This document shows, piece after piece, positions 12,952 to 64,000 of a DNA stretch of 64,000 nucleotides (its first letter is position 1; each line of letters starts with the position of its first letter). Below the pieces are notes generated by a model that saw nothing but the letters and a program-made list of their open reading frames with translations, was not told where the DNA came from and did not search any database. The position numbers were made by a program, and so were the translations under genes. Source of the stretch: an uncultured cyanobacterium (GTDB lineage Bacteria > Cyanobacteriota > Cyanobacteriia > Cyanobacteriales > Nostocaceae); assembly GCA_963706595.1 (NCBI GenBank), contig OY970166.1:3040001-3104000 (forward strand), read 5' to 3'.

Positions 12952-13164
12952 CCTTATAGGGGAGAGGTTTGAAGAGAGGTTTTTAGTATACTTTACGACT
13001 TTACAAACATCCTCTTAGACACCATTCGGGTTTTAAACCACTCCCCAGAAGAAGCAGGGGAGCAGGGCGCACCGGAGTAAGGGGGAGTAAGAAATTATTT
13101 TAAACTTCCGGTTACTTAACAAGCATTCTTCTTCTCCCCTGCCCCCTGCCCCTTTTCCTCTTCT

Positions 13165-13205
13165 CCCTACTCCCCACTCCCCACTCCCCACTCCCCACTC
13201 CCCAC
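13165..13205. repeat. STRR heptamer tract (CCCCACT)n
   Basis: Tandem CCCCACT/CCCTACT units. Confidence 0.85.
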
Positions 13206-23907: not shown

Positions 23908-24156
<249 letters not shown>

Positions 24157-35763: not shown

Positions 35764-35906
35764 TATAGCAACCGCCAAGGAGATTAAGACATAAACGGAT
35801 AATCAAAACTTAGACACCAAAAAGGTTTTAACCCACTCCCCACTCCCCACTCCCTACTCCCTACTCCCCACTCCCCACTCCCCACTCCCCACTCCCCACT
35901 TCCCAG
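35764..35906. repeat. TATAGC-type dispersed repeat with (CCCCACT)n tract
   Basis: ccgccaagg..ttaagacataaacggataatcaaa shared with 11182 and 24020. Confidence 0.8.
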
Positions 35907-41528: not shown

Positions 41529-43379
41529 ATGTATATTAAAGCTTCTCAAATACTAGGCGATCGCTTCAAACAAACGAAGTTTTGGCAAAGCAATTATTTA
41601 ATAATCCGAGAATTTAAAAGTTTTCGCAAAGTTGCTATTTTCGCTTTATTCTTTTCATTCTTAGCCGCAACCTTTGAAGGTGTTAGTATTGGTTTTTTGC
41701 TGTCATTTCTGCAAAATTTGACTACTCCAGATGCAGAACCAATTCAAACTGGAATTGCTTGGTTTGATACCTGGATTTTAGCATCTCAGGCATCGGCAAT
41801 TAATCGACTATATCGCATCTCTTTACTAATTTTATTCAGTACATGGATACGTGCTGGTTTCAATTATCTATCACACGTCTATATAGAAATATCTCAACTA
41901 TTTCTAGCTGACCGCTTGCGAAAACAAATTTTTGAGCAGTTGCAAGGATTGCCGTTAAGTTACTTTGCTAAAACTCGCTCTGGTGAACTGATTAATACTA
42001 TCACCACTGAAATTGAAAGAATGAAACAGTGGTTTAGTGGCGCAGCCTTTTTGACAACTCGAGGGATTACGGCTTTTGTCTACTTTATCTCGATGTGTTT
42101 ATTATCGTGGCAACTGACTATTATTTCGTTTTTCTTATTTACCTTGGTAGGAGTCGGATTATCAACACTCAATGCTCGCGCCAGAGAAACGAGTTTTAGT
42201 ACTTCCATCGCTAATGGAAACTTTACTTCAATCGCAATAGAATTTATTAATGCCATTCGTACAGTTCAGGCATTTTCTACTCAAGAGTTTGAGCGCCAAC
42301 GTTTCTATCAAGCCAGCAATAATGTAGTTACCACTTCCACTAAAGTTGTATTAACTTGGGCGCTGGTGAGACCTTTAGCTGAAGCTATAGCTAGTACGAT
42401 TCTCATTGGGATGATTATTTTTGCCTTTACTGTGTTTGTTGTCAATGGAACTCTACAAGTTGCTTCTTTACTGACGTTCTTCTTTGTGCTGTTCCGGGTT
42501 GTGCCAATTGTGCAAGATATTAATGGCACTAGAGCGCATCTCAGCACACTGGCAGGAGCGGCAGATAATATTAAGGAGTTGATTAGGATTGACAATAAAA
42601 CTTATTTGCAAAATGGCTATATCAAGTTTAATGGGTTGCAACATTCTATTGATATAGTCTCTGCTGACTTTGGTTATGATGCTAATAGTTTAGTGCTAAA
42701 TAATATTACTCTGAGCATTGAGAAGGGTAAAACTACAGCTTTAGTGGGTGGAACTGGTGCTGGTAAAAGTACATTAATTGATTTAATTCCCCGATTTTAT
42801 GATCCCACAGAAGGAGATGTACTGATTGATGGCATGAATATCCGTCAATTTGACATTAGCTCTTTAAGACAGAAAATTGCTGTTGTCAGTCAGGATACAT
42901 TTATTTTCAATACTACTGTGGGGAATAATATTTCCTACGGTACAGAAGGGGCGACTGAAGCTGAAATTCGTGAAGTTGCTCGATTAGCAAATGCACTGGA
43001 ATTTATTGATGAAATGCCTGAAGGTTTGAATACTCAATTGGGAGATCGGGGTGTGCGGTTATCGGGAGGACAACGCCAGCGAATTGCGATCGCTCGCGCT
43101 TTGCTGCGTGATCCACAAATTCTGATTTTGGACGAAGCCACTAGCGCTCTAGATTCCATGACTGAGCGTTTGATTCAAGAATCTATTGAAAAGTTATCTG
43201 TAGGTAGAACAGTGATTGCGATCGCTCACCGTCTTTCCACCATCGCCCAAGCCGATAAAGTTGTGGTATTAGAACAAGGACGGATCATTGAGCAAGGTAA
43301 TTATCAAGAATTACTAGAACTCAAAGGCAAATTATGGGAATACCATAAAACTCAATATCAAATAGGTCAAATTGGATAA
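41529..43379 (+). CDS. hepA: ABC exporter HepA
   Basis: TMD plus NBD (GGTGAGKS, LSGGQRQR, ILDEATS); position in the HEP island. Confidence 0.88.
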   Translation: MYIKASQILGDRFKQTKFWQSNYLIIREFKSFRKVAIFALFFSFLAATFEGVSIGFLLSFLQNLTTPDAEPIQTGIAWFDTWILASQASAINRLYRISLLILFSTWIRAGFNYLSHVYIEISQLFLADRLRKQIFEQLQGLPLSYFAKTRSGELINTITTEIERMKQWFSGAAFLTTRGITAFVYFISMCLLSWQLTIISFFLFTLVGVGLSTLNARARETSFSTSIANGNFTSIAIEFINAIRTVQAFSTQEFERQRFYQASNNVVTTSTKVVLTWALVRPLAEAIASTILIGMIIFAFTVFVVNGTLQVASLLTFFFVLFRVVPIVQDINGTRAHLSTLAGAADNIKELIRIDNKTYLQNGYIKFNGLQHSIDIVSADFGYDANSLVLNNITLSIEKGKTTALVGGTGAGKSTLIDLIPRFYDPTEGDVLIDGMNIRQFDISSLRQKIAVVSQDTFIFNTTVGNNISYGTEGATEAEIREVARLANALEFIDEMPEGLNTQLGDRGVRLSGGQRQRIAIARALLRDPQILILDEATSALDSMTERLIQESIEKLSVGRTVIAIAHRLSTIAQADKVVVLEQGRIIEQGNYQELLELKGKLWEYHKTQYQIGQIG

Positions 43380-43487
43380 ATTATGCAAATTAATTTCTGT
43401 AATATTATCTAAATTAACCGGATTCAAGGGACGCTAGTTTGCAAATTTAATTGAGAGCAAAATTAGGATTTTCACGAGGTCAAATAA

Positions 43488-44327
43488 ATGGTAAATATTG
43501 GTTATCATTCTGCTCGTATCCAAGGAAAAGTTAACCGCTATCTCTATAAATCAAAAATTGCTCGAACGGTTAAAGTTACCATTGACAAAACTCAAAAAGT
43601 TCCCCTGAGCGTCTATGCTTTATCTTGTGAGCGTGACTTAGCGGAACAAGTGGCAAGTATTCGTTCATTTATCACTAATGTTGGTATTCCTGAGAAATTT
43701 ACTGTAATTTCTGATGGTAGCTACACTGATTTGAGTTGTCAGTTATTACGCAGTATTCATCCCTGTGTTGAGGTTGTACCCATTGACAAATTTATCAAAC
43801 CAGATTTGCCCCAATGTGTATCTGATTATGCCCAAGTGCATCCAATGGGTAAGAAATTATCAGCATTAATGTCAATTCCTGTGGATGGTGCAACTATCTA
43901 TACAGACTCAGATATTTTATTCTTCCCTGGGGGAATTGACTTGGTTGAGTTAGCGCAGTTAGATAGTCAAGTCTGCCATTATTTACCTGATTGCTCAAAT
44001 TCACTGGATAGCAGAATCCTTTATGAGGATACAGAAAAAGTCAATCCGGTAAATGCGGGATTTATTTTATTTAAGCATGAATTAGATTGGAGCTTTGCAA
44101 TTAAACGTTTAGCAAATATACCTGGAACACCGAGCTATTTTACTGAACAAACAATTGTCCATTTGACAATTCACCATCATCATGGTGTTCCCCTATGCTC
44201 AGAAAAGTATGTGATGAATGTGATGGATCAATTTATCTATCCAGATAAATTTTCTAGTCAAGAAATTGCTTTACGGCATTATGTCAGTGATGTGAGACAT
44301 AAGTTTTGGATGAATGTTTACAACTAA
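43488..44327 (+). CDS. Putative GT-A fold glycosyltransferase
   Basis: YTDSDILF DxD motif, VNAGF, EQT. Confidence 0.65.
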   Translation: MVNIGYHSARIQGKVNRYLYKSKIARTVKVTIDKTQKVPLSVYALSCERDLAEQVASIRSFITNVGIPEKFTVISDGSYTDLSCQLLRSIHPCVEVVPIDKFIKPDLPQCVSDYAQVHPMGKKLSALMSIPVDGATIYTDSDILFFPGGIDLVELAQLDSQVCHYLPDCSNSLDSRILYEDTEKVNPVNAGFILFKHELDWSFAIKRLANIPGTPSYFTEQTIVHLTIHHHHGVPLCSEKYVMNVMDQFIYPDKFSSQEIALRHYVSDVRHKFWMNVYN

Positions 44328-44376
44328 ATTTATCCCGAAACAATGAGGATTCTCGTGAGAAATAAGCCAAATCAAT

Positions 44377-45516
44377 ATGAGTTATACATTAGTTGATCAA
44401 AAAATGATTTATCACTGCTCCCAAGCTAATATCAAGGGCGGTGGTGGGATTGAAACTTATTTAGCGTCTTTGATAAATTCTCAAATTACTGGGGTGAGCG
44501 ATCGCACTCTTTCTTCTCTGAAAAATATAGATCAAAAACAGCCGCAATTGCTGCACGTCCACGATTTAGATATGCTAGACGAACTCCAAGAAGAATGTCC
44601 GGCTATCTTTACTCTGCATAATAACTCTAGCTACTGTCCTAGTGGCACAAAATATTTAACAAATCGGGACAAGGTGTGCGATCGCATTATGAACCCCTTG
44701 GGATGTACTTGGGGACATTTAGTAGACGGTTGTGGTAGTCGCCGCCCGCAAAATATTTGGCAGGACTGGAGGAATGCTAATCATCCTTTAGGAATCCTCA
44801 AAAAGCTGAAAATTCCGGTTATTGCTAACAGCGATTATGTCCGTCAGCAAATCGTCAGTAATGGTTTAGCACCTGAACGAGTGGTGACATTACGGTGTGG
44901 TGTACAACCGCCTCAAAGTGACAATGCACCTCTAAATCGGGAAATACACCAAAATCAGCGTATTTTGTTCGCTGGTCGCATTGTTCCTTATAAAGGTGTG
45001 GAATGGCTGATTAAAGCTTTGGCACTTTGCGATCAACCCATTCATCTTGACATTGCTGGTGATGGTTGGAGTCAGCCCAGTATGGAAAAGTTAGCACAGA
45101 AAATGGGGTTAGGCGATCGCATTACTTGGCATGGCTGGTGTAATAGCGAAAAACTCGAAACACTTTATCAACAGTGCTTTGCGGTGGTTTTTCCCAGTCT
45201 GTGGCCTGAACCTGCCGGTCTTATAACTCTTGAAGCCTATGCTCATTATCGACCAATCATCGCTAGTGCAGTGGGAGGTATTCCCGAACACGTGCGAGAT
45301 GGCGAAACAGGTATTTTGGTTCCACCTCACAACATTAAACAGTTAGCTGCTGCTATCAACGAACTAGGAAGCAACTTTTCCCAAAGTCAATTAATGGGTG
45401 AACAAGGTCAAGCTTGGTTCCAAGAAGAGTTCACAATTGATGTTCATATTCAACGGTTAAAAATAATTTACGAAAAAACTATTGCTGAGTTTCTTCCCGG
45501 AAATTCAGGTAATTAA
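44377..45516 (+). CDS. GT4 glycosyltransferase
   Basis: FAGRIVPYKG, PSLWPEPAGLITLEA. Confidence 0.92.
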   Translation: MSYTLVDQKMIYHCSQANIKGGGGIETYLASLINSQITGVSDRTLSSLKNIDQKQPQLLHVHDLDMLDELQEECPAIFTLHNNSSYCPSGTKYLTNRDKVCDRIMNPLGCTWGHLVDGCGSRRPQNIWQDWRNANHPLGILKKLKIPVIANSDYVRQQIVSNGLAPERVVTLRCGVQPPQSDNAPLNREIHQNQRILFAGRIVPYKGVEWLIKALALCDQPIHLDIAGDGWSQPSMEKLAQKMGLGDRITWHGWCNSEKLETLYQQCFAVVFPSLWPEPAGLITLEAYAHYRPIIASAVGGIPEHVRDGETGILVPPHNIKQLAAAINELGSNFSQSQLMGEQGQAWFQEEFTIDVHIQRLKIIYEKTIAEFLPGNSGN

Positions 45517-45568
45517 CTGTAAATTTTAGCAAAATCACCTTACTTTTAAATAAATCTCAAAATTAACA

Positions 45569-46591
45569 ATGGAAAACCCAAAACCGAAGATTGTAGTCAT
45601 TACCCCTGTAAAGAATGAAGCTTGGATTTTAGATCGCTTTTTAGCTGTCACAAGTGAATTTGCTGATCATATAATTATTGCCGACCAAAATTCCATTGAT
45701 GGTAGCCAGGATATTTGTCATAAATATCCTAAAGTTATACTGATTGAAAACAAATCAGAAAAATTCAACGAATCAGATCGGCAGTTATTATTGATTCAAG
45801 CAGCCAGAGATTTAGTGCCAGAACATAAAATCATTTTGGCTTTGGATGCTGATGAAATTCTAGCAGCTAATGCCATCCATACTCAAAGCTGGCAAGCAAT
45901 GCTCAAAGCCAAGCCAGGAACGGTGTTATTTTTTGAAAAACCAGATTTATTTGTCACAACTAATCAATGTTTAAGAACTGGTATTTTGACACCCTTGGGT
46001 TATGTCGATGATGGCGCAGAACATCAGCCACAAAAAATTCATAGTGTGAGAATTCCCATGCCTGAATATGCTACCAGATTACATATTCATGACATCAAGG
46101 TGATGCACTATGCTGTAACTCGTTTGGATGCTCATGCCTCGAAATTACGTCTTTATAGTGTAATCGAAAATGTCTTAGAAGTTGGTCATCCTTTAGGCAG
46201 GCGATCGCGCTATCCTTCCAAACCTGATTATTTAAGTCTAGGCAAATTAGAAACTGCTGCCCAGGAGTGGTTTACAGGTTGGGAAGAACGGGGAATTGAT
46301 ATGCATACAATTATCAAAGAAAAGTATTATCACTACGATTTTGAAGTGCTGCGTTATTTTCATAAATACGGGATTCAACGCTTTTGGATGGAAGATATTT
46401 GGGCTTATGACTGGGAAGCGTGCCGTCAATATGCTCAATCAATAGGTATGAGTAATATCCCTGATTATCAAATACCCAGAACATCTAAAAGCATAGATTT
46501 AATGAGAATTGTGGATGTCACAATGTCAATGAGTACTCAATCTTATAAATATCTGGCTTCAGTTCTCAAACCCTCAATGAAATTGGGTTAA
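45569..46591 (+). CDS. GT2 glycosyltransferase
   Basis: TPVKNEA, DQNSIDGS, LDADE. Confidence 0.88.
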   Translation: MENPKPKIVVITPVKNEAWILDRFLAVTSEFADHIIIADQNSIDGSQDICHKYPKVILIENKSEKFNESDRQLLLIQAARDLVPEHKIILALDADEILAANAIHTQSWQAMLKAKPGTVLFFEKPDLFVTTNQCLRTGILTPLGYVDDGAEHQPQKIHSVRIPMPEYATRLHIHDIKVMHYAVTRLDAHASKLRLYSVIENVLEVGHPLGRRSRYPSKPDYLSLGKLETAAQEWFTGWEERGIDMHTIIKEKYYHYDFEVLRYFHKYGIQRFWMEDIWAYDWEACRQYAQSIGMSNIPDYQIPRTSKSIDLMRIVDVTMSMSTQSYKYLASVLKPSMKLG

Positions 46592-46633
46592 AAACTTAAT
46601 TGCATACTCCTACCCAAAGATAAAGATTTGAAT

Positions 46634-47641
46634 ATGAATAACATCAATTCTGGTCGATTAGAGAACGAGCCTCTTGTCAGTGTGATTATCCCAACTTATA
46701 ATCGGGCGGAGTATCTTCAGCAGGCGATCGCCAGTGCAATTAATCAGACTTATCAAAATATTGAAATCATTGTTTCAGATAACTGTAGTCCAGAAAATCC
46801 CCAAGAAATTATCGAAGCTTTTAAAGATACACGCATTCGCTTTTGGCGACAACCGCAAAATCTAGGGATGATTGCCAATCAGATGCACGCCTTCAAAATG
46901 GCCAAAGGTAAATATGTTGCTAGTCTCCACGATGATGATATGTGGAATCAAGACTTTTTAGCCAAACTTGTACCACCATTAGAAGCAAATTCTGATTTAA
47001 TTCTGGCTTTTTGTGATCAATATATTATCGATGCAAATAGCAGAATTCAAGATGATAAAACCCAAATAAATACCCATAGTTACAAGCGAGATCAACTTGC
47101 CCCAGGAGTCCATCAACCTTTCTATCAAATTGGGTTAATAGATAAAAGTATCGCCACTGCTGCCGCTTGCGTGATTCGCAATAACTTAATTGATTGGGAT
47201 AGTATTCCCGCAGAAATTGGTGGTATGTGGGACTTGTATTTAACTTACCTCTGCTGTATGTCCGGTTATGGTGCTTACTATAGCCCAGAAAAACTGACAT
47301 TATATCGAGAACATGAGCAGACCGACACTCAGCTTAGTGGTAGTAGAAATGTGCAGGCAAAAATCCGCAAAGCCCAAAGTGAAATGTTCTGTTACAAAAT
47401 CTTTATCGAAGATTCTCGGATACAAGAATTCCAAACCCATTTTCAAAATAAATGGTTAGAATCTCAGACAACTTTAGGCATTGGTTTACTGCGAAATCAA
47501 CAGATAGTATCAGCCCGTTCTTATCTTTGGCAAGCCCTGAAAAAGCAAAAATTCAATCTCCGAACCATCGTAGCCCTTACTCTCAGCTTTACCCCCAAAA
47601 TTTTAGCTGAACAATTACTTAGAATCCCAAAATCAAGCTAA
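46634..47641 (+). CDS. GT2 glycosyltransferase
   Basis: VSVIIPTYNR, SDNCS, LHDDD. Confidence 0.92.
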   Translation: MNNINSGRLENEPLVSVIIPTYNRAEYLQQAIASAINQTYQNIEIIVSDNCSPENPQEIIEAFKDTRIRFWRQPQNLGMIANQMHAFKMAKGKYVASLHDDDMWNQDFLAKLVPPLEANSDLILAFCDQYIIDANSRIQDDKTQINTHSYKRDQLAPGVHQPFYQIGLIDKSIATAAACVIRNNLIDWDSIPAEIGGMWDLYLTYLCCMSGYGAYYSPEKLTLYREHEQTDTQLSGSRNVQAKIRKAQSEMFCYKIFIEDSRIQEFQTHFQNKWLESQTTLGIGLLRNQQIVSARSYLWQALKKQKFNLRTIVALTLSFTPKILAEQLLRIPKSS

Positions 47642-47697
47642 ATTATTGATTTTAATCAAGTTGGCGGGAATAAATCTAACTATATGAAACAATGCCA

Positions 47698-47904
47698 GAG
47701 GTTATTTTAAAAGTGTGTGGCTGTGATTTTAGGGACTTAATAATCCCCCCTAGCCCTCCTTGAAAAGGGGAGAATTAGAATCAAAGTCCCTCTTCATAAG
47801 GGGAGCCAGTGCGGTCTTGGGGGTTTCCCCCATGAGCAACTGGCGTGGATTTAGGGGAATCTAGAATGTTTTGCTACCAACAATAAGACTTTTCAAATAT
47901 TCTC
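47698..47904. mobile_element. MITE related to the 11222 element, with internal REP hairpins
   Basis: gaggttattttaaaagt ... acttttcaaatattctc termini. Confidence 0.6.
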
Positions 47905-47965
47905 TTAATTAAGGACTAAAGTCCTGAATACAAAACTTAAACACCATTAACAATAGAGGGAATAA

Positions 47966-49201
47966 ATGGAAATTTGCATTGTTACCCACACCGTACAAAA
48001 AGGCGATGGTCAGGGTAGAGTTAACTACGAAGTTGCCCAAGAAGCAATTCGTCGCGGTCATCACCTGACATTATTAGCTAGTCATGTAGCTTCAGAACTA
48101 CAGCAAAACCCCCAAGTGAACTGGGTTCCTATTTCTATTAAAGGATGGCCGACCGAATTTATTCGCAACCTGATATTTTCCTTTAAAAGTACAACTTGGT
48201 TGCGGAAACATCACGCTGAACTTGACATAGTAAAAGTAAATGGGGCAATTACCCATGCTTCTGGAGATGTGAATGCAGTACATTTTGTGCATAATTCTTG
48301 GCTGAAATTCACCTCTAGGAAAACTCAAACAAAGTCTCGGAAATTTGGCTATGACTTTTACCAGTGGCTATACACAACTTTAAATGCACACTGGGAAAAA
48401 CAAGCTTTTCAAAAAGCGCAAGTAGTAGTAGCAGTTTCTGATAAAGTTGCCCAGGATTTAAGAGAAATAGGTGTACCCCCAGAGTCAATCAAAGTAGTTT
48501 TAAACGGCGTTGATTTACAGGAATTCTCCCCAGGAATCAGCGACCGCCAAGAATGGCAACTTCCTGAAGGCGTACCCTTAGCACTGTTTGCAGGTGATAT
48601 CAGACTGGCGCGCAAAAACTTAGATACAGTTTTACAAGCTTTAGTAGAAGTTCCTGAGTTACATCTCGCCGTAGCCGGAAATACTCAAGGAAGTCCCTAT
48701 CTTCAACTAGCAGAATCATTGGGATTGCGTGAACGGGTACATTTTTTGGGACAGAGGTCCGATGTTCCAGAACTGATGAAAGCGGTAGATTTCTTGGTTT
48801 TTCCCTCACGTTACGAACCGTTTGGCTTAGTGGTGATTGAAGCGATGGCTTCTGGTTTACCTGTAATTACAGCTAGTTCCACTGGTGCAGCCGATTTGGT
48901 AACGCCAGAATCAGGAATAGTTTTGTCAGACTCTGACGATGCTGAGGCTTTGACACAAGCAATGCGGTTATTAACAAGCGATTGCGCGGAGCGCTGTGCC
49001 GGAGGCGATCGCACCTTGTGCCAACAAATGGGAAAAGCCGCGCGTTCAGTCGCCGAACAACATAGCTGGACGAAGATGGCACAAACTTATCTGGATTTAT
49101 TTGAGGAGTTAATTAATCATGAGGAATACAGTTCTCATCCCCACCTATCGTCGTCCTCTGGATCTATCACGCTGCCTTTTGGCACTGCAAGCCCAAACTA
49201 A
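47966..49201 (+). CDS. GT4 glycosyltransferase
   Basis: RKNLD, PSRYEPFGLVVIEAMASG. Confidence 0.92.
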   Translation: MEICIVTHTVQKGDGQGRVNYEVAQEAIRRGHHLTLLASHVASELQQNPQVNWVPISIKGWPTEFIRNLIFSFKSTTWLRKHHAELDIVKVNGAITHASGDVNAVHFVHNSWLKFTSRKTQTKSRKFGYDFYQWLYTTLNAHWEKQAFQKAQVVVAVSDKVAQDLREIGVPPESIKVVLNGVDLQEFSPGISDRQEWQLPEGVPLALFAGDIRLARKNLDTVLQALVEVPELHLAVAGNTQGSPYLQLAESLGLRERVHFLGQRSDVPELMKAVDFLVFPSRYEPFGLVVIEAMASGLPVITASSTGAADLVTPESGIVLSDSDDAEALTQAMRLLTSDCAERCAGGDRTLCQQMGKAARSVAEQHSWTKMAQTYLDLFEELINHEEYSSHPHLSSSSGSITLPFGTASPN

Positions 49202-50048
49202 ACCCGTTGATCAAGTAATTTTGGTAGTTCGGGATACGGATACAGAAACTTGGGAATTTCTCGCTGAATTCAATTCCCAAAACTTACCACTGCAAACTGT
49301 GCAGGTAACACAAACGGGTGTAGTAGCAGCACTCAATGCCGGATTAGCAGCAGTAGAAGGAGACATTTTTTCTATTACTGATGATGATGCTGCACCTCAT
49401 CCTGATTGGTTAGAAAAAATCAATGCACACTTTATTGCTGATAGTTGTATTGGTGGTGTTGGTGGTCGTGATTGGGTACATTACGGCGACAAAATCGAGG
49501 ACGGTCAAGAGCCGATAGTTGGTAAGTTGCAGTGGTTCGGGCGGGTAATTGGTAATCATCATCTCGGAGTTGGAAAACCCCGTGAAGTTGATGTTCTCAA
49601 AGGTGTAAACATGAGTTTTCGGACTCAAGCAATCGGGCAGTTACAATTTGATCAAAGAATGCGGGGTACGGGAGCGCAGGTACATTTTGAAATGGCATTT
49701 ACTCTAAGTTTAAAACGGGCTGGTTGGAAGATGATTTATGATCCACAGGTGGCGGTAGACCACTATCCAGCCCAACGTTTTGATGAAGACCAACGCCATA
49801 ATTTTAATGAAATTGCTTTTATTAATTTAGTTCATAATGAAACTTTGGTTTTATTAGAACATTTGCCGCGATCGCGCCATATTGTATTTTGGCTTTGGGC
49901 AGTATTAGTCGGAACACGAGAAAATTTAGGTTTAATACAATGGCTAAGACTTTTACCAAGTCAAGGTAAACTTGCCGGACAAAAATTCCTAGTCTCCTGG
50001 CGTGGACGTGGGCAAGCACGGAAAGAATTCGTAATTCGTAATTCGTAG
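49119..50048 (+). CDS. GT2 glycosyltransferase
   Basis: VLIPTYRR, TDDDA, GVNMSFR; GAGGAG RBS. Confidence 0.92.
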   Translation: MRNTVLIPTYRRPLDLSRCLLALQAQTKPVDQVILVVRDTDTETWEFLAEFNSQNLPLQTVQVTQTGVVAALNAGLAAVEGDIFSITDDDAAPHPDWLEKINAHFIADSCIGGVGGRDWVHYGDKIEDGQEPIVGKLQWFGRVIGNHHLGVGKPREVDVLKGVNMSFRTQAIGQLQFDQRMRGTGAQVHFEMAFTLSLKRAGWKMIYDPQVAVDHYPAQRFDEDQRHNFNEIAFINLVHNETLVLLEHLPRSRHIVFWLWAVLVGTRENLGLIQWLRLLPSQGKLAGQKFLVSWRGRGQARKEFVIRNS

Positions 50049-50071
50049 TTCGTAGTTCGTAATTCGTAATT
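50028..50071. repeat. STRR heptamer tract (TTCGTAA/G)x6
   Basis: ttcgtaattcgtaattcgtagttcgtagttcgtaattcgtaa. Confidence 0.85.
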
Positions 50072-50126
50072 AAGAAGGTTTTGTTTTCGGATCTCTCATT
50101 TAAAATATAGAGTTGGTAGATTCATA

Positions 50127-51588
50127 GTGATTTCTAAACAAATACATTTCAATGCTTTTTCAGAATCACAGTTTTTTCCCCAAGAGCGATCGCTACAGGG
50201 TTGGCTAGCTATTGTCGGCTTTTTATTACTGAACGTAGTTTGCTATTTTGCCGGTGCTGCTAGTTTATTGCGCTTAGTTTACCCGGTGACAGCTTTAGCG
50301 GTAGCGATATTTTTATACTTACGCCATCCCATTCTTTATATCGGCTTTACTTGGTGGATATGGTTCCTGACACCCTTAGCCACTCGCTTAGTTGACTATC
50401 GCATTGGCTGGGACCCCAGCCGTCAGATGCTTGTAGCACCCTATTTAGTAGTATTTGTGACAATAGGGACTTTTTTACGCCATTCTCCTCGCGCTTCCAC
50501 CCAGGGAGGATTACCGTTTATTTTGGCGTTTATTGGCGTGTTTTATGGTTTTTTAGTGGGTCTAGTTTACAATGCGCCGCTTCCTGTCGCCAGGGGTTTT
50601 TTGGATTGGCTGAGTCCCATTATCTTCGCTTTTCACTTATTTAGAAACTGGCGAGACTATCCCAGCTACCGCCAGAATCTGCAACGTATATTTCTCTGGG
50701 CTGTGTTGATTTTAGGCATTTATGGCATTTATCAATTCGTGGTAGCACCAGAGTGGGATAGATACTGGCTGATAGAATCCAAAATGTTTACGAGTTCGGG
50801 AGATCCTGAACCTTTTGGAATGCGGGTGTGGAGTACTTTACACTCGCCCGGACCTTTTGCCTATGTGATGCAAACAGGTTTATTACTATTATTTACAAGT
50901 TCGGGAACGTTAATTTTTCCCGCCTCAGCAGTTGGTTACGTGTCGTTTTTGTTGACACAAGTACGCACTAGTTGGTTGGGTTGGTTGCTAGGAGTAGTAA
51001 TGATTTTTGGCTCCGTGAAGGAGCATATTCAAATGCGGTTAATTGCCATCATTTTAATCATGTTAATGTGTGTTGTGCCATTGGCAACCATTGAGCCGAT
51101 TTCTGATGTTGTTACCGAGCGTTTGGAAAGTTTTACTAATTTAGAAAAAGATACTAGCTTTAAAGATAGATCGGGAAGCTATGACAGAAATTTAAGTTTA
51201 GCCCTTTCTAATGTTTTAGGTAATGGGTTAGGAAATATTTGGAAAGTCAATGAAAAAACTGGTCAATTAGAAGTTTTTGTGCTTGATAGCGGCATTTTAG
51301 ATATGTTTTTTACCCTGGGCTGGTTGGGTGCAATACCTTATCTTGGTGGGTTAATTTTAGTGATAGTCAGCGTACTTAAATATAGTGAAGCCCATTTTGA
51401 TAGTTTTGTCAGCGCCGCCCGCGCAATTGGTCTGAGGTACTTGTGTGCAGTTAGTTGGCAATAGTGCGATGCTGAGTATACCAGGTATGATTCTTTGGGG
51501 ATTTTTAGCTATGGCTATGGCCGCCCACAAGTACTATGAGCATCAAAGAATCAATACCTTTGTTGAAGAAGTAATGAACCACCGATAA
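50127..51588 (+). pseudogene. O-antigen ligase/Wzy-like membrane protein; frameshift near 51436
   Basis: Multi-TM, RVWSTLHSPG, LTQVRTSW; +1 frame continues TCVQLVGNSAMLSIPGMILWGFLAMAMAAHKYY to a stop at 51588. Confidence 0.8.
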
Positions 51589-51966
51589 GGGACTAAAAAA
51601 TCAAATAATTATTTGTAGGGTGGGTTAGGAGGCTAGTCCGTAACCCACAATTATCCTGAAGTTTATGGTGGATTAAGCGATCGCTTTCCCCGACTACAAT
51701 TTTTGGGTAATTTATTTTTTGGTGTTCCCTAAACGCCGATAAATGCTTAGTGTTCAGCCACCAATTGGCCTTTAAATCCCGGAGATTTGAGTGATGAATT
51801 GCAAATTTATCTGATAAATGTGTCGGTGGAACGTTTCTCGAAGAACCCCACCCCCAACCCCCTCCCCGCAAGCGAGGAGGGGGCTATGATCGCGATCGCT
51901 ATTTGGAATTTGGAATTGAGTTTATTATTTGGTAGAATTGCTTCCAGCCGGGCGTAGGCGATCGCC

Positions 51967-52167
51967 TTATTTCTCTTCATCCTCTCGGCGGCTAATCTGT
52001 TGCAGTACGGGAATGCACTGGTTAATTAGCCAAATCAGCGTTTCTGTCACCGAGTCACCTTGTTGAATGCGGTCTGTAGCTTGGATACCAGCTAGTAGAA
52101 CTTTTAAACTTAGCAACACAGCTATTAATTTTTGATTGCGGCGGGAAGTAGATTTCTTAGCTGACAT
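51967..52167 (-). CDS. Small hypothetical protein divergent from the NACHT gene
   Basis: 66 aa, basic N-terminus plus hydrophobic helix; AGGTG RBS before ATG 52167. Confidence 0.6.
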   Translation of the reverse strand: MSAKKSTSRRNQKLIAVLLSLKVLLAGIQATDRIQQGDSVTETLIWLINQCIPVLQQISRREDEEK

Positions 52168-52326
52168 TTGATTCACCTATGTGGTTGACTAGGTGAATTA
52201 TTTTTTTGGGTGTTTCCCCAGACACGTTACCCATGCAATGTCTATAATGCTTGTATCACTTAGGTTTGCAGCTTGGGGAAACTTATTTGTTTGGGTAATG
52301 CTAGTTTCTTAAGATTGTCTTTATAA

Positions 52327-55300
52327 ATGCCAAGGAATATTTGTTGGGATGAATCGGTTTTAGAGAATGTGCTGATTTTGGTAGAAGCTTTAATGCAACT
52401 GTCTGAACTGCAACCTGAAAACTTACAACCAAAACCTCCACTTTATGTTCAGTGGGAAGCTGATAATAAACTGCGCGTTACAGGATACGAAACCAAACCG
52501 ACACGAGGAAAAATAGCTAGAACAGTTGAAGTTGGCACAAAGAAGGAACACTTACTCAAGCTTGTGACAACGGTAGGTAAAACCTTAAAACTGCGTCAGC
52601 GCCGAAAAGGACCTGTTAGAAGTCAGCTAGAAAGAGAATTGGAAGAAGTGCAATATTTTTTCGACAGTCTCAGAGAATTGAAACTGATAGATAAATTCAT
52701 ACAGAAGCAAGGTTATTGGAAATTTACGCTGACGCTGAAACATCAAACTGCATCAAAGCAAGAGAATTTGCAGGTGGTGAAGCAGAAGTGGAACGAACAC
52801 CCCAAGACAAAAGCAACTTCTCAGATTATCCTAACCACTGATACAAGCATTGACTGGCGCGATATTTGCCACAAAAGGCTGGAAAAGCAGCAAGAAGATG
52901 CACAACTCAGACACAAAGCCACAGAGAAAGGTTTTGAAGTCAATGTTTATGTTCCTTTAGGACTGGTGGAACGCAAACAGCAGCAACGCCGAGGTGAACA
53001 CGAACAGCGAGAACAAGAAAATCCCTATGCATTAGATAAAGAAGTCATTGTCAAAACTTATGAACGTGGCGACTTTCTTCTACAAGTGATTGGACAAAAA
53101 CCAGCCGGAAATCACAAGCATATTGCCATCATCGGAGAACCAGGTGCAGGTAAGACAACTTTATTAACTAATATCGCCTCTTTTATTAAAGACACATCTG
53201 AAGATTTACCTATCTTTATATCTCTTGCTAACTTGCAAGGAAAGACTATTGAAGACTATTTACTCAAAATCTGGCTGACTGAAGCCATGAGATTAGTTAA
53301 AGTTGTCGTCACTCCAGAAATTGAAGATCAGTTAATCGAACGCTTTAGGAAAGGAGGGGTTTGGCTGCTGTTAGATGGTGTAGATGAAATGGGTGAGAAT
53401 TCTCCCATCCAAGCATTAAGCAAAATTAATCAAGCACTCAAACAATTGCCGATAGAGGTGCGGGTGGTGCTGACTTGTCGGTTAAATGTTTGGGATGCCA
53501 ATGTTAATAATACACTTACAGGTTTTGACATCTATAAAACCCAAGAATTTAAACCAGAGCAAATTGACGACTTCATTCAGCAATGGTTTACTTGTGCCGA
53601 AAAGCAACAGCGCGGTGAAGAACTTAAGGCGAAATTAAAAGCACCTAAATATGAAAAAATCTGTAAATTGGTAACAAATCCTTTGCGTTTGGCGCTGTTG
53701 TGTCAAACTTTCTATCTGGATAAGCAAGGAGAATTACCAGAAACTAAAGCCGCCCTTTATCAGAGATTTACCCGCTATTTCTATGAGTGGAAACCTGAAC
53801 AATTTTGTGAGTTGATTAACTCTGATGATGTGAAGGATGAATTACACAAAGCTTTAAGTAAATTAGCTTTTGCAGGTATTAACAGTGCGGCTAGATTTCG
53901 CTTGAAGCGGAGTTTAGCACGGCAACAAATGGGTGAAAAGCTGTTTAAATTAGCTTGTGATGTCGGTTGGTTGAATTTAGTAGACAGGTTAGCGGGAACA
54001 GATGAAGAAGTTTATGCTTTCTTTCATCCCAACTTTCAGGAATACTTTGCAGCGTTAAAGGTTAAGGATTGGCGCGAGTTTTTTAAACCTATTCCCAAAA
54101 AACCTACGCCAGATGTTTACCGCATTTTTGAACCGCAGTGGAAGGAAGTAATTTTGCTGTGGTTGGGAAGAGAAGATGTAGAGCCGAGAGAGAAAGAGGC
54201 GTTTATTAAAGCGTTGGTGGAATTTGATGACCAATGTGGAGATTGGAGCAATATTCATCAAGTAAGACATGGATATTATGAATTTAGAGCTTATTTTCTT
54301 GCTGCTGCGGGTATTACAGAGTTTAAATATTTCCAAGCAAAGGAAATAGTTGAACAAATCCTTAGATGGGGATTTGGTAAGTTCGATATTGCGAAACAGC
54401 AATGGGTGACATTTCTTTACCCAATTGCAAACGGAATAAAAGCAGCACTCCTACAAACAGAACGCGCAACAGCCATTGATGCCTTGGTGAAGTTAATCAC
54501 CGACTCCAATGTGGATGACTCTACCAAATACTACGCGGCATCTAGCTTAGGGCAAATTGGCTCTGGCAACCAAACAGCCATTGATGCCTTGGTGAAGTTA
54601 ATCGCCGACTCCAATGTGGATAATAATACCAAACACCAAGCGGCATCTAGCTTAGGGCAAATTGGCTCTGGCAACCAAACAGCCATTGATGCCTTGGTGA
54701 AGTTAATCGCCGACTCCAATGTGGATAATAATACCAAATACTACGCGGCATCTAGCTTAGGGCAAATTGGCTCTGGCAACCAAACAGCCATTGATGCCTT
54801 GGTGAAGTTAATCACCGACTCCAATGTGGGTAACTATACCAAATACTACGCGGCATCTAGCTTAGGACAGATTCACCCAGGCAACCAAACAGCCATTGAT
54901 GCCTTGGAGAAGTTAATTGCCAACTCCAATGTGGATAACTATACCAAATACTACGCGGCATCTAGCTTAGGGCAAATTGACCCACGCAACCAAACAGCCA
55001 TTGATGCCTTGGTGAACTTCATCGCCGACTCCAATGTGGATAACTATACCAAATACTACGCGGCATCTAGCTTAGGGCAAATTGGCTCTGGCAACCAAAC
55101 AGCCATTGATGCCTTGGTGAAGTTACTCGCCGACTCCAATGTAGATAACTATACCAAACACAAAGCGGCATTTAGCTTAGGGCAAATTGGCTCTGGCAAC
55201 CAAACAGCCATTGATGCCTTAGTGAAGTTAATCGCCGACTCCAATGTGGATAACTATACCAAATACTACGCGGCATCTAGCTTAGGGCAGATTGATCCAC

Positions 55301-56610
55301 GCAAGCAAACAGCCATTGATGCCTTGGTGAAGTTAATCACCGACTCTAATGTGGATAACTATACCAAATACTACGCGGCATCTAGCTTAGGGCAGATTGA
55401 TCCACGCAAGCAAACAGCCATTGATGCCTTGGTGAAGTTAATCACCGACTCCAATGTGAATAACTATATTAAAAGCGTAGCAGCATCTAGCTTAGGGCAA
55501 ATTGGCTCTGGCAATCAAACAGCCATTGATGCCTTGGTGAAGTTAATCGCCGACTCCAATGTGGATAATAATACCAAATACTACGCGGCATCTAGCTTAG
55601 GGCAAATTGACCCATGCAAGCAAACAGCCATTGATGCCTTGGTGAAGTTAATCGCCGACTCCAATGTGGATAATAATACCAAACACCAAGCGGCATCTAG
55701 CTTAGGGCAAATTGGCTCTGGCAATCAAACAGCCATTGATGCCTTGGTGAAGTTAATCGCCGACTCCAATGTGGATAACTATACCAAATACTACGCGGCA
55801 TCTAGCTTAGGGCAAATTGGCTCTGGCAACCAAACAGCCATTGATGCCTTGGTGAACTTCATCGACGACTCCAATGTGAATAACTATATTAAAAGCGTAG
55901 CGGTATCTAGCTTAGGGGAAATTGGCTCTGGCAACCAAACAGCCATTGATGCCTTGGTGAACTTCATCGCCGACTCCAATGTGGATGACGATACCAAACA
56001 CCGTGCGGTATCTAGCTTAGGGAAAATTTTGACAAAAGAACACATGGCGAGTGTTGTCACTGTGTTGAAGAATTGTTTATCAGATGAAATTTATAAGAGT
56101 GATTTTGACATCTTCAAGGAATGTTACTCCCTCTTCTGGGACTGCGCCCAAAATCTAACCTACCCAGATTTTTATCAAGCATGGCACGCTGGGGAAGACT
56201 CAGAAAATTTAGATTCTCCTAGCGAGACTTTTACACCCCAAAACCTGCAAGCTGCCATTAACAGCGATCGCCTACTCAGTCAAACCATCCACCTCATCTG
56301 CATTGACACTAGCAAATTTATTGACCCCAATCACCCAGCATCTAAAATTTACACTGAAATCGTCAAAGCTGGCTGTCCCAAGTGCGAAGATGGTACACCA
56401 AAGACAATGACGGAACTTAAAACTTATTGGGACTTGCTAGAAACTGACAAACGTGTGGTTTTAGTGTTTTATCAAGGTATGGGTTCACAATCACAACAAT
56501 TAAGCGATCTCATCCTCAACCACCTCAGCAAATTTAACAATACCATTTGTGTCATCGGCGACCAAACAAGCGATGATATTTTAAATCGGCTGCGGAGTCT
56601 GCAAAGTTAA
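52327..56610 (+). CDS. NACHT (STAND) NTPase with HEAT-repeat array (NLR-like)
   Basis: Walker A GEPGAGKT, Walker B LLLDGVDE, NPLRL, FFHPNFQEYFAA, 15 x 35-aa HEAT repeats. Confidence 0.93.
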   Translation: MPRNICWDESVLENVLILVEALMQLSELQPENLQPKPPLYVQWEADNKLRVTGYETKPTRGKIARTVEVGTKKEHLLKLVTTVGKTLKLRQRRKGPVRSQLERELEEVQYFFDSLRELKLIDKFIQKQGYWKFTLTLKHQTASKQENLQVVKQKWNEHPKTKATSQIILTTDTSIDWRDICHKRLEKQQEDAQLRHKATEKGFEVNVYVPLGLVERKQQQRRGEHEQREQENPYALDKEVIVKTYERGDFLLQVIGQKPAGNHKHIAIIGEPGAGKTTLLTNIASFIKDTSEDLPIFISLANLQGKTIEDYLLKIWLTEAMRLVKVVVTPEIEDQLIERFRKGGVWLLLDGVDEMGENSPIQALSKINQALKQLPIEVRVVLTCRLNVWDANVNNTLTGFDIYKTQEFKPEQIDDFIQQWFTCAEKQQRGEELKAKLKAPKYEKICKLVTNPLRLALLCQTFYLDKQGELPETKAALYQRFTRYFYEWKPEQFCELINSDDVKDELHKALSKLAFAGINSAARFRLKRSLARQQMGEKLFKLACDVGWLNLVDRLAGTDEEVYAFFHPNFQEYFAALKVKDWREFFKPIPKKPTPDVYRIFEPQWKEVILLWLGREDVEPREKEAFIKALVEFDDQCGDWSNIHQVRHGYYEFRAYFLAAAGITEFKYFQAKEIVEQILRWGFGKFDIAKQQWVTFLYPIANGIKAALLQTERATAIDALVKLITDSNVDDSTKYYAASSLGQIGSGNQTAIDALVKLIADSNVDNNTKHQAASSLGQIGSGNQTAIDALVKLIADSNVDNNTKYYAASSLGQIGSGNQTAIDALVKLITDSNVGNYTKYYAASSLGQIHPGNQTAIDALEKLIANSNVDNYTKYYAASSLGQIDPRNQTAIDALVNFIADSNVDNYTKYYAASSLGQIGSGNQTAIDALVKLLADSNVDNYTKHKAAFSLGQIGSGNQTAIDALVKLIADSNVDNYTKYYAASSLGQIDPRKQTAIDALVKLITDSNVDNYTKYYAASSLGQIDPRKQTAIDALVKLITDSNVNNYIKSVAASSLGQIGSGNQTAIDALVKLIADSNVDNNTKYYAASSLGQIDPCKQTAIDALVKLIADSNVDNNTKHQAASSLGQIGSGNQTAIDALVKLIADSNVDNYTKYYAASSLGQIGSGNQTAIDALVNFIDDSNVNNYIKSVAVSSLGEIGSGNQTAIDALVNFIADSNVDDDTKHRAVSSLGKILTKEHMASVVTVLKNCLSDEIYKSDFDIFKECYSLFWDCAQNLTYPDFYQAWHAGEDSENLDSPSETFTPQNLQAAINSDRLLSQTIHLICIDTSKFIDPNHPASKIYTEIVKAGCPKCEDGTPKTMTELKTYWDLLETDKRVVLVFYQGMGSQSQQLSDLILNHLSKFNNTICVIGDQTSDDILNRLRSLQS
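54469..56028 (+). repeat. Coding tandem array, 15 x 105 bp
   Basis: acagccattgatgcctt recurs every 105 nt from 54469 to 55939. Confidence 0.97.
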
Positions 56611-56768
56611 TTCAGCGTTAGCCAAGAGAGATGCCAAGTTTCTCCATTGATCGCGATCGCATCATATCTGCAACTCGGTAGTGCAGTGAACTTACTCCAG
56701 GCTTTTTTTAGTTCAGTTGAACTCCCTTCTATTTGGTAAAATCTAGGGTGAGCCAGAGGAGAACAGAC

Positions 56769-57503
56769 ATGGTAGCCGCCCAAACGAATTTAAATATTTC
56801 TGCCTTAGAAGGAGAATATAGTCAAAGAACACCCAGAGAAATTATCAAATTTGCCTTAGAGACTTATCACAATCTCTCGATTTCTTTTAGTGGTGCTGAG
56901 GATGTTGTTCTGATTGATATCGCCTCAAAAATTACCAAAGATTTCCGTGTTTTTACACTCGATACCGGACGCTTGCACCCAGAAACTTATCAGTTATTGG
57001 ATCAGGTTCGAGAACATTATGGGATTAAATTAGAAGTTCAATTCCCGGATGCTGCGGAAGTACAAGCTTTAGTCGAAGAAAAGGGATTGTTTAGTTTCTA
57101 TCAAGATGGTCACAAAGAATGCTGCGGAGTTCGCAAAGTTAGACCATTACGCCGCAAACTCAATACCCTTGATGCTTGGATTACCGGACAACGCAAAGAC
57201 CAAAGTCCTAGTACCCGCAATCATATTCCTGTAATTGAAGTTGATACTGCTTTCTCTACCCCAGACCATCAGTTAATTAAATTTAACCCTTTAGCAAACT
57301 GGTCTTCCACACGGGTGTGGGAATACATTCGCGCTTTCAATGTGCCTTATAATAAGTTGCACGAACGCGGTTTTATCAGCATCGGTTGCGAACCTTGCAC
57401 TCGACCTGTGTTACCTAGCCAGCATGAACGCGAAGGTCGCTGGTGGTGGGAAGAATCCACAATGAAAGAGTGCGGTTTACACGCTGGGAATTTAGAAAAA
57501 TAG
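56769..57503 (+). CDS. cysH: APS/PAPS reductase, Fe-S-containing type
   Basis: [33 protein letters not shown]. Confidence 0.93.
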
Positions 57504-57542: not shown

Positions 57543-57812
57543 CTATCCTTTACGGCTTTTCCAGTATCCAGGTTCTCGACTGCAATTTTCTAGAAGCCGT
57601 CTTACTTGTGCTAAAGCCTCATCACCTGATATCGGCTCAACAGCACCGCTACGAATTTCATCTCGCCGTCGCTTTGCTTCAGTCGTCCAAGCAGCCTCAA
57701 AAATTGGATCAATATCAAATTCTAGGCTTTCGACGAGTTTTTCTGCTAAAAAAGCTCTAGATTCGTTTGGTAAAGATAATGCTTCTTGCATCAGTTGTTC
57801 AATAGACAACAT
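57543..57812 (-). CDS. Addiction-module antitoxin (TIGR02574-like) with a toxin-derived tail
   Basis: ALSLPNESRAFLAEKLVESL..AWTTEAKRR; tail CSREPGYWKSR. Confidence 0.8.
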   Translation of the reverse strand: MLSIEQLMQEALSLPNESRAFLAEKLVESLEFDIDPIFEAAWTTEAKRRRDEIRSGAVEPISGDEALAQVRRLLENCSREPGYWKSRKG

Positions 57813-57842
57813 AATCACACAAGTGGGGTTTAACTTCTGCTT

Positions 57843-59633: not shown

Positions 59634-59969
59634 TTAAGCAACACCATAATCTGTGTACTGCCGTTTGAAAGGAGGTTGCAAACCCAAGATAATATCTTCT
59701 CGTGGTACTCCCATTTCAACTAATTCCTCAGCCGGATTCTGATCAGTTAAATTCTGCTGAAGCCAAATTTTGCCATTTTTAATGTCGAAATGCATAACAC
59801 ATCGATAAACCCGATTAAATTGCTGCCAACCCACATTCATCCACTGGTAATGGTTATGCTCAGTATCTAAGATGAGTTGAACTTCTACGTCCTGATCTGA
59901 GACATCATTACTAGCATAACGAGTCAGTAGTGTTTTAATACATTCCTGATATTTTGCTACTTTATCCAC
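59634..59969 (-). CDS. xisI: XisI-family protein
   Basis: HYQWMNVGW, HFDIKNGKIWLQ, GVPREDIILG. Confidence 0.92.
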   Translation of the reverse strand: MDKVAKYQECIKTLLTRYASNDVSDQDVEVQLILDTEHNHYQWMNVGWQQFNRVYRCVMHFDIKNGKIWLQQNLTDQNPAEELVEMGVPREDIILGLQPPFKRQYTDYGVA

Positions 59970-60382
59970 TGCACAATCACCTCATTTGCTGGATCATATA
60001 CAATTAGTGGTATTTGATATTGTTGTACCGCAATTTTGGTAAACTCAAGTTGAAAAAATGTTTGGTATGTATCCAAAGGAACCGCCAAGTATAATAATCT
60101 TTCTGGTTCAGTGGCTGCCAATGCCAGGCGATAACTGAGAAACTGTCCCAAGGCAGAGTAAAAATCTGTGATTGCAGAAGGATTTAGAAAGCTTTTGATC
60201 TCAATTGCTATTTTCTCTCCGGCTTTCTCAGCAGCAATCAATTTCTCCGCGCCCAGGTCAATCTGAAAATTGATATCGCCGAATTTAAACTTAAGTGGGT
60301 CGTTTGTAATTAACCACTGCTCTTTTTGAAGAGCTTGTTTTACCATTTCGTGAAAGATATCTTTGGCAGACACTTTATCCAC
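59957..60382 (-). CDS. xisH: XisH-family PD-(D/E)XK protein
   Basis: SAKDIFH, IDLGAE, EIKSF, ALGQF. Confidence 0.92.
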   Translation of the reverse strand: MDKVSAKDIFHEMVKQALQKEQWLITNDPLKFKFGDINFQIDLGAEKLIAAEKAGEKIAIEIKSFLNPSAITDFYSALGQFLSYRLALAATEPERLLYLAVPLDTYQTFFQLEFTKIAVQQYQIPLIVYDPANEVIVQWIK

Positions 60383-63232: not shown

Positions 63233-64000
63233 TTATGAGAGCAAACCTTCAGGAACATTCACGGCTGAATCTAATCCTTGCACATCTTTCCAGTTTGTAT
63301 CCTCATTCCAAATAATTGTGTTGAGGTCAGCGCCTGAAAGGTTAGCGCCATAGAGGTCAGCACCTGAAAGGTTAGCACCTAAGAGGTTAACGCCATAGAG
63401 GTAAGCGCCATAGAGGTTAGCTCCTATGAGGTTAGCGCCTGAGAGGTAAGCACCTATGAGGTTAGCGGTTGTGAGGTTAGCTCCTATGAGGTAAGCGCTA
63501 TAAAGTTTAGAGACGGAGAGGTTAGCTCCTATGAGGTTAGCTCCTATAAGGTTAGCGGTTGTGAGGTTACTGCCTGAGAGGTCAGTCCCTGAGAGGTTAG
63601 CGCCTGAGAGGTCAGCGCCTGAGAGGTAAGCACCTATGAGGTTAGCGCCTGAGAGGTTAACGCCATAGAGGTAAGAACCAACAGTTTTTAAGAAAGTATC
63701 TAAAATAACACTGTTGCTGTAACTAATAATCCGAAGTAATCGCTGGTCATCAAAATTATCACAGTCTTCTTTACCACATGGATAAAAAATAATCTGATCT
63801 TTTAATTCATTTTTAGCTTGAGCATACCGATTTACTTCTAAAAGTAAAATCATCACATTCAGCCCAGCATAAATATCTACCTCTCTCAAATCCAGCGATA
63901 TATTTTGTGCCTTGAATGTTTGCATTTGATTTAGAGGCAGATTATTCGGGTGTCCACTAATAAATTTCCCTTGACACCAATCAAGATAAAAATACTCCAA
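63233..64000 (-). CDS. Pentapeptide-repeat protein, 3' part (starts beyond the window)
   Basis: A(N/D/Y)L(S/I/Y)G repeats from 15-nt units, about 63324-63675; frame open to the window edge. Confidence 0.9.
   Translation of the reverse strand: MEYFYLDWCQGKFISGHPNNLPLNQMQTFKAQNISLDLREVDIYAGLNVMILLLEVNRYAQAKNELKDQIIFYPCGKEDCDNFDDQRLLRIISYSNSVILDTFLKTVGSYLYGVNLSGANLIGAYLSGADLSGANLSGTDLSGSNLTTANLIGANLIGANLSVSKLYSAYLIGANLTTANLIGAYLSGANLIGANLYGAYLYGVNLLGANLSGADLYGANLSGADLNTIIWNEDTNWKDVQGLDSAVNVPEGLLS

Follow-up and report, generated by a model that had tools for sequence, protein, structure and literature searches.

Likely re-coding of a non-self sensor by repeat shuffling in a cyanobacterial NACHT gene

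Why would a NACHT receptor carry a sensor of fifteen nearly identical repeats that differ mainly at a few positions? The question is raised by a gene in a 64,000-nucleotide stretch of DNA (the window) from an uncultured cyanobacterium of the Nostocaceae (GenBank assembly GCA_963706595.1, contig OY970166.1, positions 3,040,001 to 3,104,000). The gene occupies positions 52327-56610 of the window on the plus strand, as do all of its parts given below, and its open reading frame (ORF) and Pfam matches define an NLR-like (NOD-like receptor-like) protein of 1,427 amino acids with the order EAD4, NACHT, 15 HEAT units, NCC-H and NCAB1. An earlier interpretation, the sequence-only reading, had proposed a sensor whose specificity is re-coded by unequal crossover or gene conversion. 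Since the near-identical HEAT repeats recombine and vary most at six predicted binding-face positions, we consider it probable that the gene encodes an intracellular non-self sensor whose specificity is rewritten as repeats are shuffled under diversifying selection, with a predicted DNA-binding output.

The repeat array and its predicted binding face

The array (54469-56043; amino acids 715-1239) consists of 15 in-frame units of 35 amino acids (105 bp) without a single indel, the fifteenth being a divergent end cap. Tandem Repeats Finder reported a period of 105, 14.9 copies and 90% matches (score 2453). Mean pairwise DNA identity between units is 88.6% (range 78 to 104 of 105 bases), with no identical pair, which bears out the near-identity in DNA noted in the sequence-only reading. 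At the protein level, identity to the array consensus averages 459/525 = 0.87 (summed by hand rather than computed with T-REKS), above the similarity of at least 0.7 given in the accessible text on NLRs with repeats of high internal conservation (HIC).

Variation is concentrated at codons 17-18, 21-22 and 31-34, as had been described, with lesser variation at codons 8-9, 11, 16, 24, 25 and 29. Two recurring blocks reported earlier were recovered, namely NNTKHQ in units 2 and 12 (which are identical at 104/105 bases) and NNYIKSV in units 10 and 14. The block DPRK is likewise present in units 8 and 9, but these units are adjacent, and not distant as had been stated. The motif expected for the binding surface, D-x-x-V-R-x-x-A-A-x, reads D-x-x-T-K-x-x-A-A-x here, although the alignment places it as the equivalent of the alphaRep motif.

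Several analyses identify the array as an alphaRep-like HEAT (HEAT_2/HEAT_PBS) solenoid. The repeats match PF13646 and PF03130, and the best match of the units among solved structures is alphaRep; with an alphaRep-type fusion, phmmer gave E = 1.7e-39. Seven units modelled with AlphaFold2 (mean pLDDT 81, approximately 90 within repeats) have helix A at about positions 1-11 and helix B at positions 17-27, and Foldseek searches with this model retrieved alphaRep and designed helical repeats. In the alignment, unit positions 17, 18, 21, 22, 25 and 29 correspond to the six randomised positions of alphaRep (18, 19, 22, 23, 26 and 30; PMC3754942, as far as its available text goes), which are located on the concave binding face. 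In the model, positions 17-25 lie on helix B and position 29 just beyond it, in agreement with the binding face suggested earlier. The six positions are thus predicted to line the concave face, and the periodicity of the helix, together with their correspondence to alphaRep, suggests that they are exposed to solvent. Over the 21 homogenised arrays described below, the highest within-array entropy was found at positions 18, 21, 22, 25, 17 and 29, in that order. These are the same six positions, and variation is therefore concentrated on the predicted binding face.

The units share with alphaRep binders (PMC3754942, in the parts available; PDB 4xl5, 6bzx and 3ltj) a two-helix repeat in which the six engineered positions coincide with the six naturally variable ones. 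They differ from them in unit length (35 versus 31 amino acids, the alignment showing two loop insertions of 2 residues each), in being natural and in being fused to a NACHT switch.

Arrays are homogenised within gene lineages and rewritten between relatives

We compared the source gene with 52 fetched relatives (12 from a search of the genus and 40 selected among the top entries of a family ranking). A homogenised array, defined as at least five inner 35-amino-acid units with at least 80% mean DNA identity, was present in 21 of these 53 genes, a count that leaves out 34-amino-acid arrays and truncated ORFs. The NACHT DNA of the source gene is 93-95% identical to that of the five genes with the closest arrays (G009, G005, G182, G137 and G101). 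Unit counts in the source gene and these five are 15, 13, 14, 14, 11 and 14, respectively; as each comes from a different species with one genome each, this repeat-number polymorphism is one between species. Each gene lineage has its own unit consensus, and in the pairs compared the inner units lack positional orthology, the end cap alone pairing up. The best match of an inner unit lies within its own array for 14/14 units of the source array and for 145/230 units family-wide, the latter figure being lowered by close relatives and ties. The source array contains seven different six-residue binding-face strings, none of which recurs in any of the five closest arrays. The array thus differs among relatives, as a shuffled sensor would be expected to.

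Recombination within the arrays was evident as well, in line with the shuffling proposed in the sequence-only reading. In a PHI-like test, nearby sites of the source array were more compatible than permuted ones (p = 0.005), and 15/21 arrays gave p < 0.05; four-gamete incompatibility was found for 39/190 site pairs of the source array. G009 carries a four-unit block duplication (a tract of 227 nt, with 0/300 shuffles as long). A multi-unit block duplication was also considered for the source array and rejected, the longest near-identical tract being 163 nt against a shuffled-order mean of 166; this array shows sub-unit mosaics without an excess of multi-unit tracts, and neighbouring units in it resemble each other no more than units far apart.

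Exchange between genomes was found at two scales. In G005 and G182, which belong to different genera, units 8-10 are identical and units 13-14 show 0-1 mismatches, whereas units 11-12 show 6 and 13 differing bases and the NACHT regions diverge by 3.7%; the best interpretation is that a tract was exchanged recently and then rewritten locally. Over 1,535 bp of N-terminal and NACHT DNA, G260 and G268 share 96% identity, after which they cannot be aligned until the NCC-H motif (56101-56187 in the source gene; amino acids 1259-1287; PF22730), the conserved position where exchanged sensors of relatives join up again. Judged from these alignments, whole sensors are sometimes replaced between NACHT and NCC-H flanks. 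The sensors of G003 and G268, both non-repetitive, show distant homology (27%). From the regex-based sensor comparison, which recovered sensors for 27/53 genes plus the G003 piece, only blastn pairs were used. The NACHT tree was built with a quick method and its "other" class mixes truncated ORFs with 34-amino-acid arrays, and only individual sister pairs were used from it; in this tree the HIC label shows 14 changes and no significant clustering (62/500 shuffles as low). At the level of sequence comparison, the array is shown to be homogenised per gene lineage, rewritten between close relatives and exchanged in tracts between genomes, which is the shuffling and concerted evolution that characterise HIC NLRs.

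Selection was estimated by a per-codon parsimony count, with the six alphaRep-equivalent codons fixed beforehand. Over the 21 arrays, these codons accumulated 337 nonsynonymous and 35 synonymous changes, a pooled dN/dS-like ratio of 2.4, and the ratio exceeded 1 in 21/21 arrays; the framework ratio was 0.66. When applied to neutral coalescent simulations with block recombination, this estimator had median values of 0.5-0.9, indicating that it is not inflated. With these neutral controls, the family shows the diversifying selection on the binding face that is expected of HIC NLRs.

The loop at positions 31-34, which had been proposed as a further diversifying specificity site, did not stand as one and was rejected: its pooled ratio is 0.8-0.9 (0.84), and a two-state loop persists at positions 31-32. 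This xP/Gx dimorphism occurs in 18/21 homogenised arrays, mostly with the same codons, and is kept across NACHT domains that are only ~45% identical, despite concerted evolution. The 31-32 loop resembles an old, maintained structural switch that perhaps tunes solenoid curvature, possibly with balancing selection acting on solenoid geometry.

Mechanism, predicted output and competing explanations

In the mechanism that we propose, unequal crossover and short gene conversion would keep the scaffold uniform and recombine the surface cassettes, and new combinations would be selected by foreign ligands that keep changing, of which proteins of phages or other invaders are the most likely. Ligand binding would then release NACHT autoinhibition and drive oligomerisation, and the clustered N-terminal EAD4 domains, predicted to be winged helices, would bind DNA, leading to a change in transcription or to cell arrest. 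The NACHT NTPase core (53122-53592; amino acids 266-422) matches PF05729 with 49.3 bits against a cut-off of 26.7, all named Pfam domains being above cut-off, and its Walker A (amino acid 270) and Walker B (amino acid 347) motifs are intact. Intact, too, is the NACHT-associated winged-helix motif with its conserved histidine (54019-54054; amino acids 565-576), which includes FFHPNF at amino acid 565 and which we take to act in NLR autoinhibition. A role of the winged-helix His motif in NLR autoinhibition is also indicated in the accessible text on bacterial NACHT (bNACHT) proteins (10.1101/2022.07.19.500537). These motifs are those of a bNACHT protein, and the NLR-like architecture read earlier from the sequence is upheld.

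The EAD4 domain (52351-52794; amino acids 9-156; PF19959, 58.6 bits) is the only copy found in the genome. Its AlphaFold2 model (pLDDT 84.7) is predicted to adopt a winged-helix fold with a beta-hairpin insert, its putative recognition helix spanning amino acids 100-117. The top VIA-align rows for this model are mostly winged-helix proteins (NtcA, CooA, CRP, Fur and ETS; Z 5-6), the best being NtcA (Z 6.0, rmsd 3.5 over 80 residues); ESM Atlas matches for EAD4 lay only below 0.9 and were not used. Among the 53 genes, the N-terminus is EAD4 in 26, a Cro/C1-type helix-turn-helix (HTH) in 15, of another kind in 5 (a caspase and a Swt1-like HEPN domain among them) and absent within the ORF in 7, that is, EAD4 or a Cro/C1 HTH in 41/53. 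STAND transcription regulators of the MalT and AfsR/SARP types likewise combine a ligand-gated STAND NTPase and a helical-repeat sensor with an HTH-type output; they belong to other STAND clades and have conserved sensors, whereas the source gene joins a NACHT with a rapidly diversified sensor to a predicted DNA-binding output.

It is possible, if on balance doubtful, that the sensing part works as proposed and EAD4 instead acts as an adaptor between proteins, recruiting a separate effector. EADs have been proposed to recruit effectors through a second EAD copy in the genome, and EAD4 itself is described as such an adaptor, in the available portion of PMC7159879; winged-helix folds also make protein contacts, as in the rows for ESCRT-II and a Cdt1-containing complex in VIA-align. 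The expected second EAD4 was not found in any of the five EAD4-carrying genomes (of 11 in the genus), each of which has one PF19959 match, and a profile built from its own subfamily found no second copy in the six frames of the source genome (next match E = 0.15). In close relatives, moreover, a Cro/C1 HTH stands in place of EAD4. The lack of a second EAD4, the winged-helix-like model and the HTH domains of relatives make DNA binding by EAD4 the likelier reading of the output.

Several results weigh against a re-coded sensor with DNA-binding output. For the source array alone, the ratio at the six codons is 1.9 and marginal (p 0.058-0.067), and in pairwise comparisons pN at these codons is lower than pS (0.20 against 0.33). 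The 21 arrays are related and hence non-independent, and the estimator is a parsimony count and not a codon model. The variable positions of alphaRep were themselves picked from natural variability, according to the part of PMC3754942 available, and the positional match alone would therefore be expected from tolerant surface sites too. With the EAD4 model, Foldseek gave no match at E ≤ 0.001 and VIA-align Z scores were middling, and the EAD4 share among N-termini is inflated because the relatives were found with an EAD4-containing query. PADLOC matches to the gene are only repeat-level or weak, and its neighbours are polysaccharide and sulfur-metabolism genes, with no defence island.

Part of this would fit neutral repeat churn, in which expansion, contraction and homogenisation are mechanical, the exposed helix positions are merely tolerant and no variable target is needed. 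Taken alone, the source array does not rise significantly above neutrality, the framework ratio is rather high, and of the five copies at this locus two are disrupted, G005 through a frameshift and a stop and G003 through an insertion sequence. Relaxed constraint, however, predicts a ratio near 1 and not the pooled value observed, and synonymous change per site is not raised at the six codons (0.46 versus 0.45). In tests against the simulated null, 6/9 arrays under a first model and 7/9 under a second gave p < 0.05, and seven hand-chosen lineage representatives gave a combined p of 1.4e-5. The expected per-codon excess is hence found across the family and marginal (p ~0.06) in the source array alone, and we judge neutral churn improbable.

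We also give little credence to the alternative that the diversified sensor serves filament self/non-self or partner recognition, or tracks a variable host or symbiont molecule, and not phage defence. The best-studied HIC NLRs, which are fungal, control allorecognition in the accounts available in part; the host is multicellular and heterocyst-forming, as judged from hepA, which is matched upstream in the window above its NCBIfam cut-off; and the predicted output is DNA binding and not a nuclease or NADase. Against this, no linked polymorphic partner gene is seen at the locus, the tested bacterial STAND/NACHT proteins are mostly phage-responsive in the literature portions consulted, and the gene moves alone between genera. 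Matches at E ≤ 1e-60 occur in 206/301 sampled genomes of the family. The copies of G182 (14 units), G137 (11) and G101 (14), from other genera, are ~90% identical in DNA and lie in unrelated neighbourhoods, and more distant relatives are located on Nostoc plasmids. The gene is patchy, non-syntenic across genera at that identity, related to plasmid-borne genes and often broken, which is usual for conflict genes and in keeping with the non-self sensor proposed.

An assembly artefact in the array or its unit order is very improbable. No public run contains half of the sequence words looked for, and the four runs with a small share of them do not span the array, leaving the source strain without reads among public runs; short-read assemblies, such as G004, break at the array. 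The genome, on the other hand, is one contig without N, the 15 units are distinct and in frame, and the same kind of array occurs in the independent near-complete genomes G009, G137 and G101. No RNA run containing the words was listed.

Writing of the variable codons from a template repeat by a diversity-generating retroelement (DGR) was rejected: several variable codons do differ at first and second positions, five reverse-transcriptase matches occur in the genome and NACHT-linked sensors are diversified by DGRs in other multicellular bacteria (in the literature seen in part), but no template was found, blastn detecting no unit copy outside the array and no array 18-mer occurring elsewhere in the genome, and DGR targets are, in that same literature, mostly C-type lectin folds. 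The reverse-transcriptase matches lie at G000:C1 1214651, 2270679, 2968451, 4623989 and 5300742, two of them with identical scores and frame length; a motif scan for the reverse-transcriptase pattern in the source genome gave no output despite these five matches.

Known receptors and the genomic setting

Both the protein class and the principle are already known. The order EAD4-NACHT-HEAT-NCC-H-NCAB1 (the last at 56236-56571; amino acids 1304-1415; PF22724) is a catalogued bNACHT architecture, whose "hybrid" sensor class includes HEAT, NCC-H and NCAB domains (10.1101/2022.07.19.500537, as far as its text is accessible). The source gene shares with that class its domain vocabulary, its abundance in cyanobacteria and its tripartite layout, here an N-terminal EAD4, the NACHT, and a repeat sensor with a small C-terminal domain. 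It differs from the published account in the homogenisation and site-level selection reported here, which the accessible part of that account does not discuss.

We regard the source gene as a HEAT-type bacterial variant of the fungal HIC NLRs, which comprise the WD40 proteins HET-E, HET-D and NWD of Podospora as well as ANK, TPR and one HEAT type (PMC4986451 and PMC13449251, in part). As in these, a NACHT is joined to near-identical repeats with repeat-number variation and concerted evolution, a few concave-face positions diversify, and repeats are exchanged between genes. Unlike them, the source gene is bacterial and HEAT-based, has tracts common to different genera, carries a predicted DNA-binding fold and not a cell-death effector at its N-terminus, and has no known allorecognition role. 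Bacterial NLRs, cyanobacterial ones included, with highly conserved WD, TPR, ANK or LRR repeats have been surveyed (10.1101/2020.01.06.895854; PMC13449251, section 12; both in part). They share the high internal conservation, and diversification by reshuffling was proposed for them; the repeats here are HEAT instead, and the mechanism was put forward, in the text available, without orthologue comparisons or selection tests. The accessible portions of PMC13581612, PMC10907252 and PMC8195603 hold nothing on HEAT homogenisation. Our literature search, which did not extend to bioRxiv supplements or most subscription papers, brought up no work on homogenised HEAT arrays in the NACHT proteins of cyanobacteria.

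Diversification of NLRs by repeat shuffling is therefore established in fungi and, in the sources at hand, only proposed for bacteria, where HEAT repeats were not surveyed. The present family shows its comparative signature, that is, homogenisation, recombination, binding-face selection, and tract and sensor exchange. Specificity alleles open to testing are defined by the six codons of each unit, which makes it directly testable what the diversified NLRs of multicellular bacteria target and whether they signal through transcription. More speculatively, heterocyst-forming cyanobacteria might maintain a repertoire of receptors driven by recombination and free of retroelements, a natural alphaRep library in which cassettes are shuffled, tracts traded between genera and sensors swapped at NACHT/NCC-H, with winged-helix EAD4 reprogramming transcription and no killer effector. 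We offer this only tentatively, the whole of it being unlikely to hold.

The gene lies in a variable genomic slot (51465-56732), defined by comparison of 11 genomes of the genus, between an O-antigen-ligase-like gene (50127-51464), the last of the hepA glycosyltransferase cluster, and cysH (56733-57503). The gene is present in this slot in 5/11 genomes. The G009 orthologue is intact with 13 units; that of G005 has 14 units in addition to its lesions; the contigs of G004 end on both sides of the array; and the interrupted G003 copy has a diverged, non-repetitive sensor. In the remaining 6/11 congeners, the slot is empty (G007 and G010) or holds an unrelated gene, either a lipoprotein-like ORF without Pfam match (G008 and G006) or a SAM methyltransferase (G002 and G001); the slot genes lie at L116:3266-3967, L119:11398-12072, L120:11123-12058 and L121:11156-12091. 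G007 (L118:2572-3513) lacks the gene, yet its match extends to window position 56572 and covers approximately the last 39 bases of the ORF (56572-56733 region), which suggests gene loss by deletion. Contigs of related organisms show an empty-site join (window 51829-56733) and, in one, an internal deletion (window 53006-56646), and in one allele 1,211 other bases stand in place of the array (window 54227-56135).

The source genome encodes four distant NACHT paralogues (21-27% identity). Paralogous HTH-NACHT genes with 34-amino-acid HEAT units, which fall outside the 35-amino-acid analysis, were found at L040:7846-11547 (G005, units near-identical) and L041:7479-10877 (G002). The conjugative Nostoc plasmid NZ_CP040289.1 (L123:5498-12544) carries two close NACHT genes beside pentapeptide-repeat genes, one of them 76% similar to parts of the source gene.

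Upstream of the slot, window positions 41529-51464 encode a hepA ABC transporter followed by glycosyltransferases and the O-antigen-ligase-like gene; the region is conserved in the congeners fetched and, by its hepA match, appears to be a heterocyst envelope polysaccharide cluster. Downstream are an addiction-module component (57543-57818; PF09720), a XisI/XisH pair (59634-60382), whose slot is likewise variable among congeners, and a pentapeptide-repeat gene (63233-64000). Finally, heptamer tandem repeats, typical of filamentous cyanobacteria, occur at window positions 13163-13205, 24078-24151, 35832-35905 and 50026-50071.

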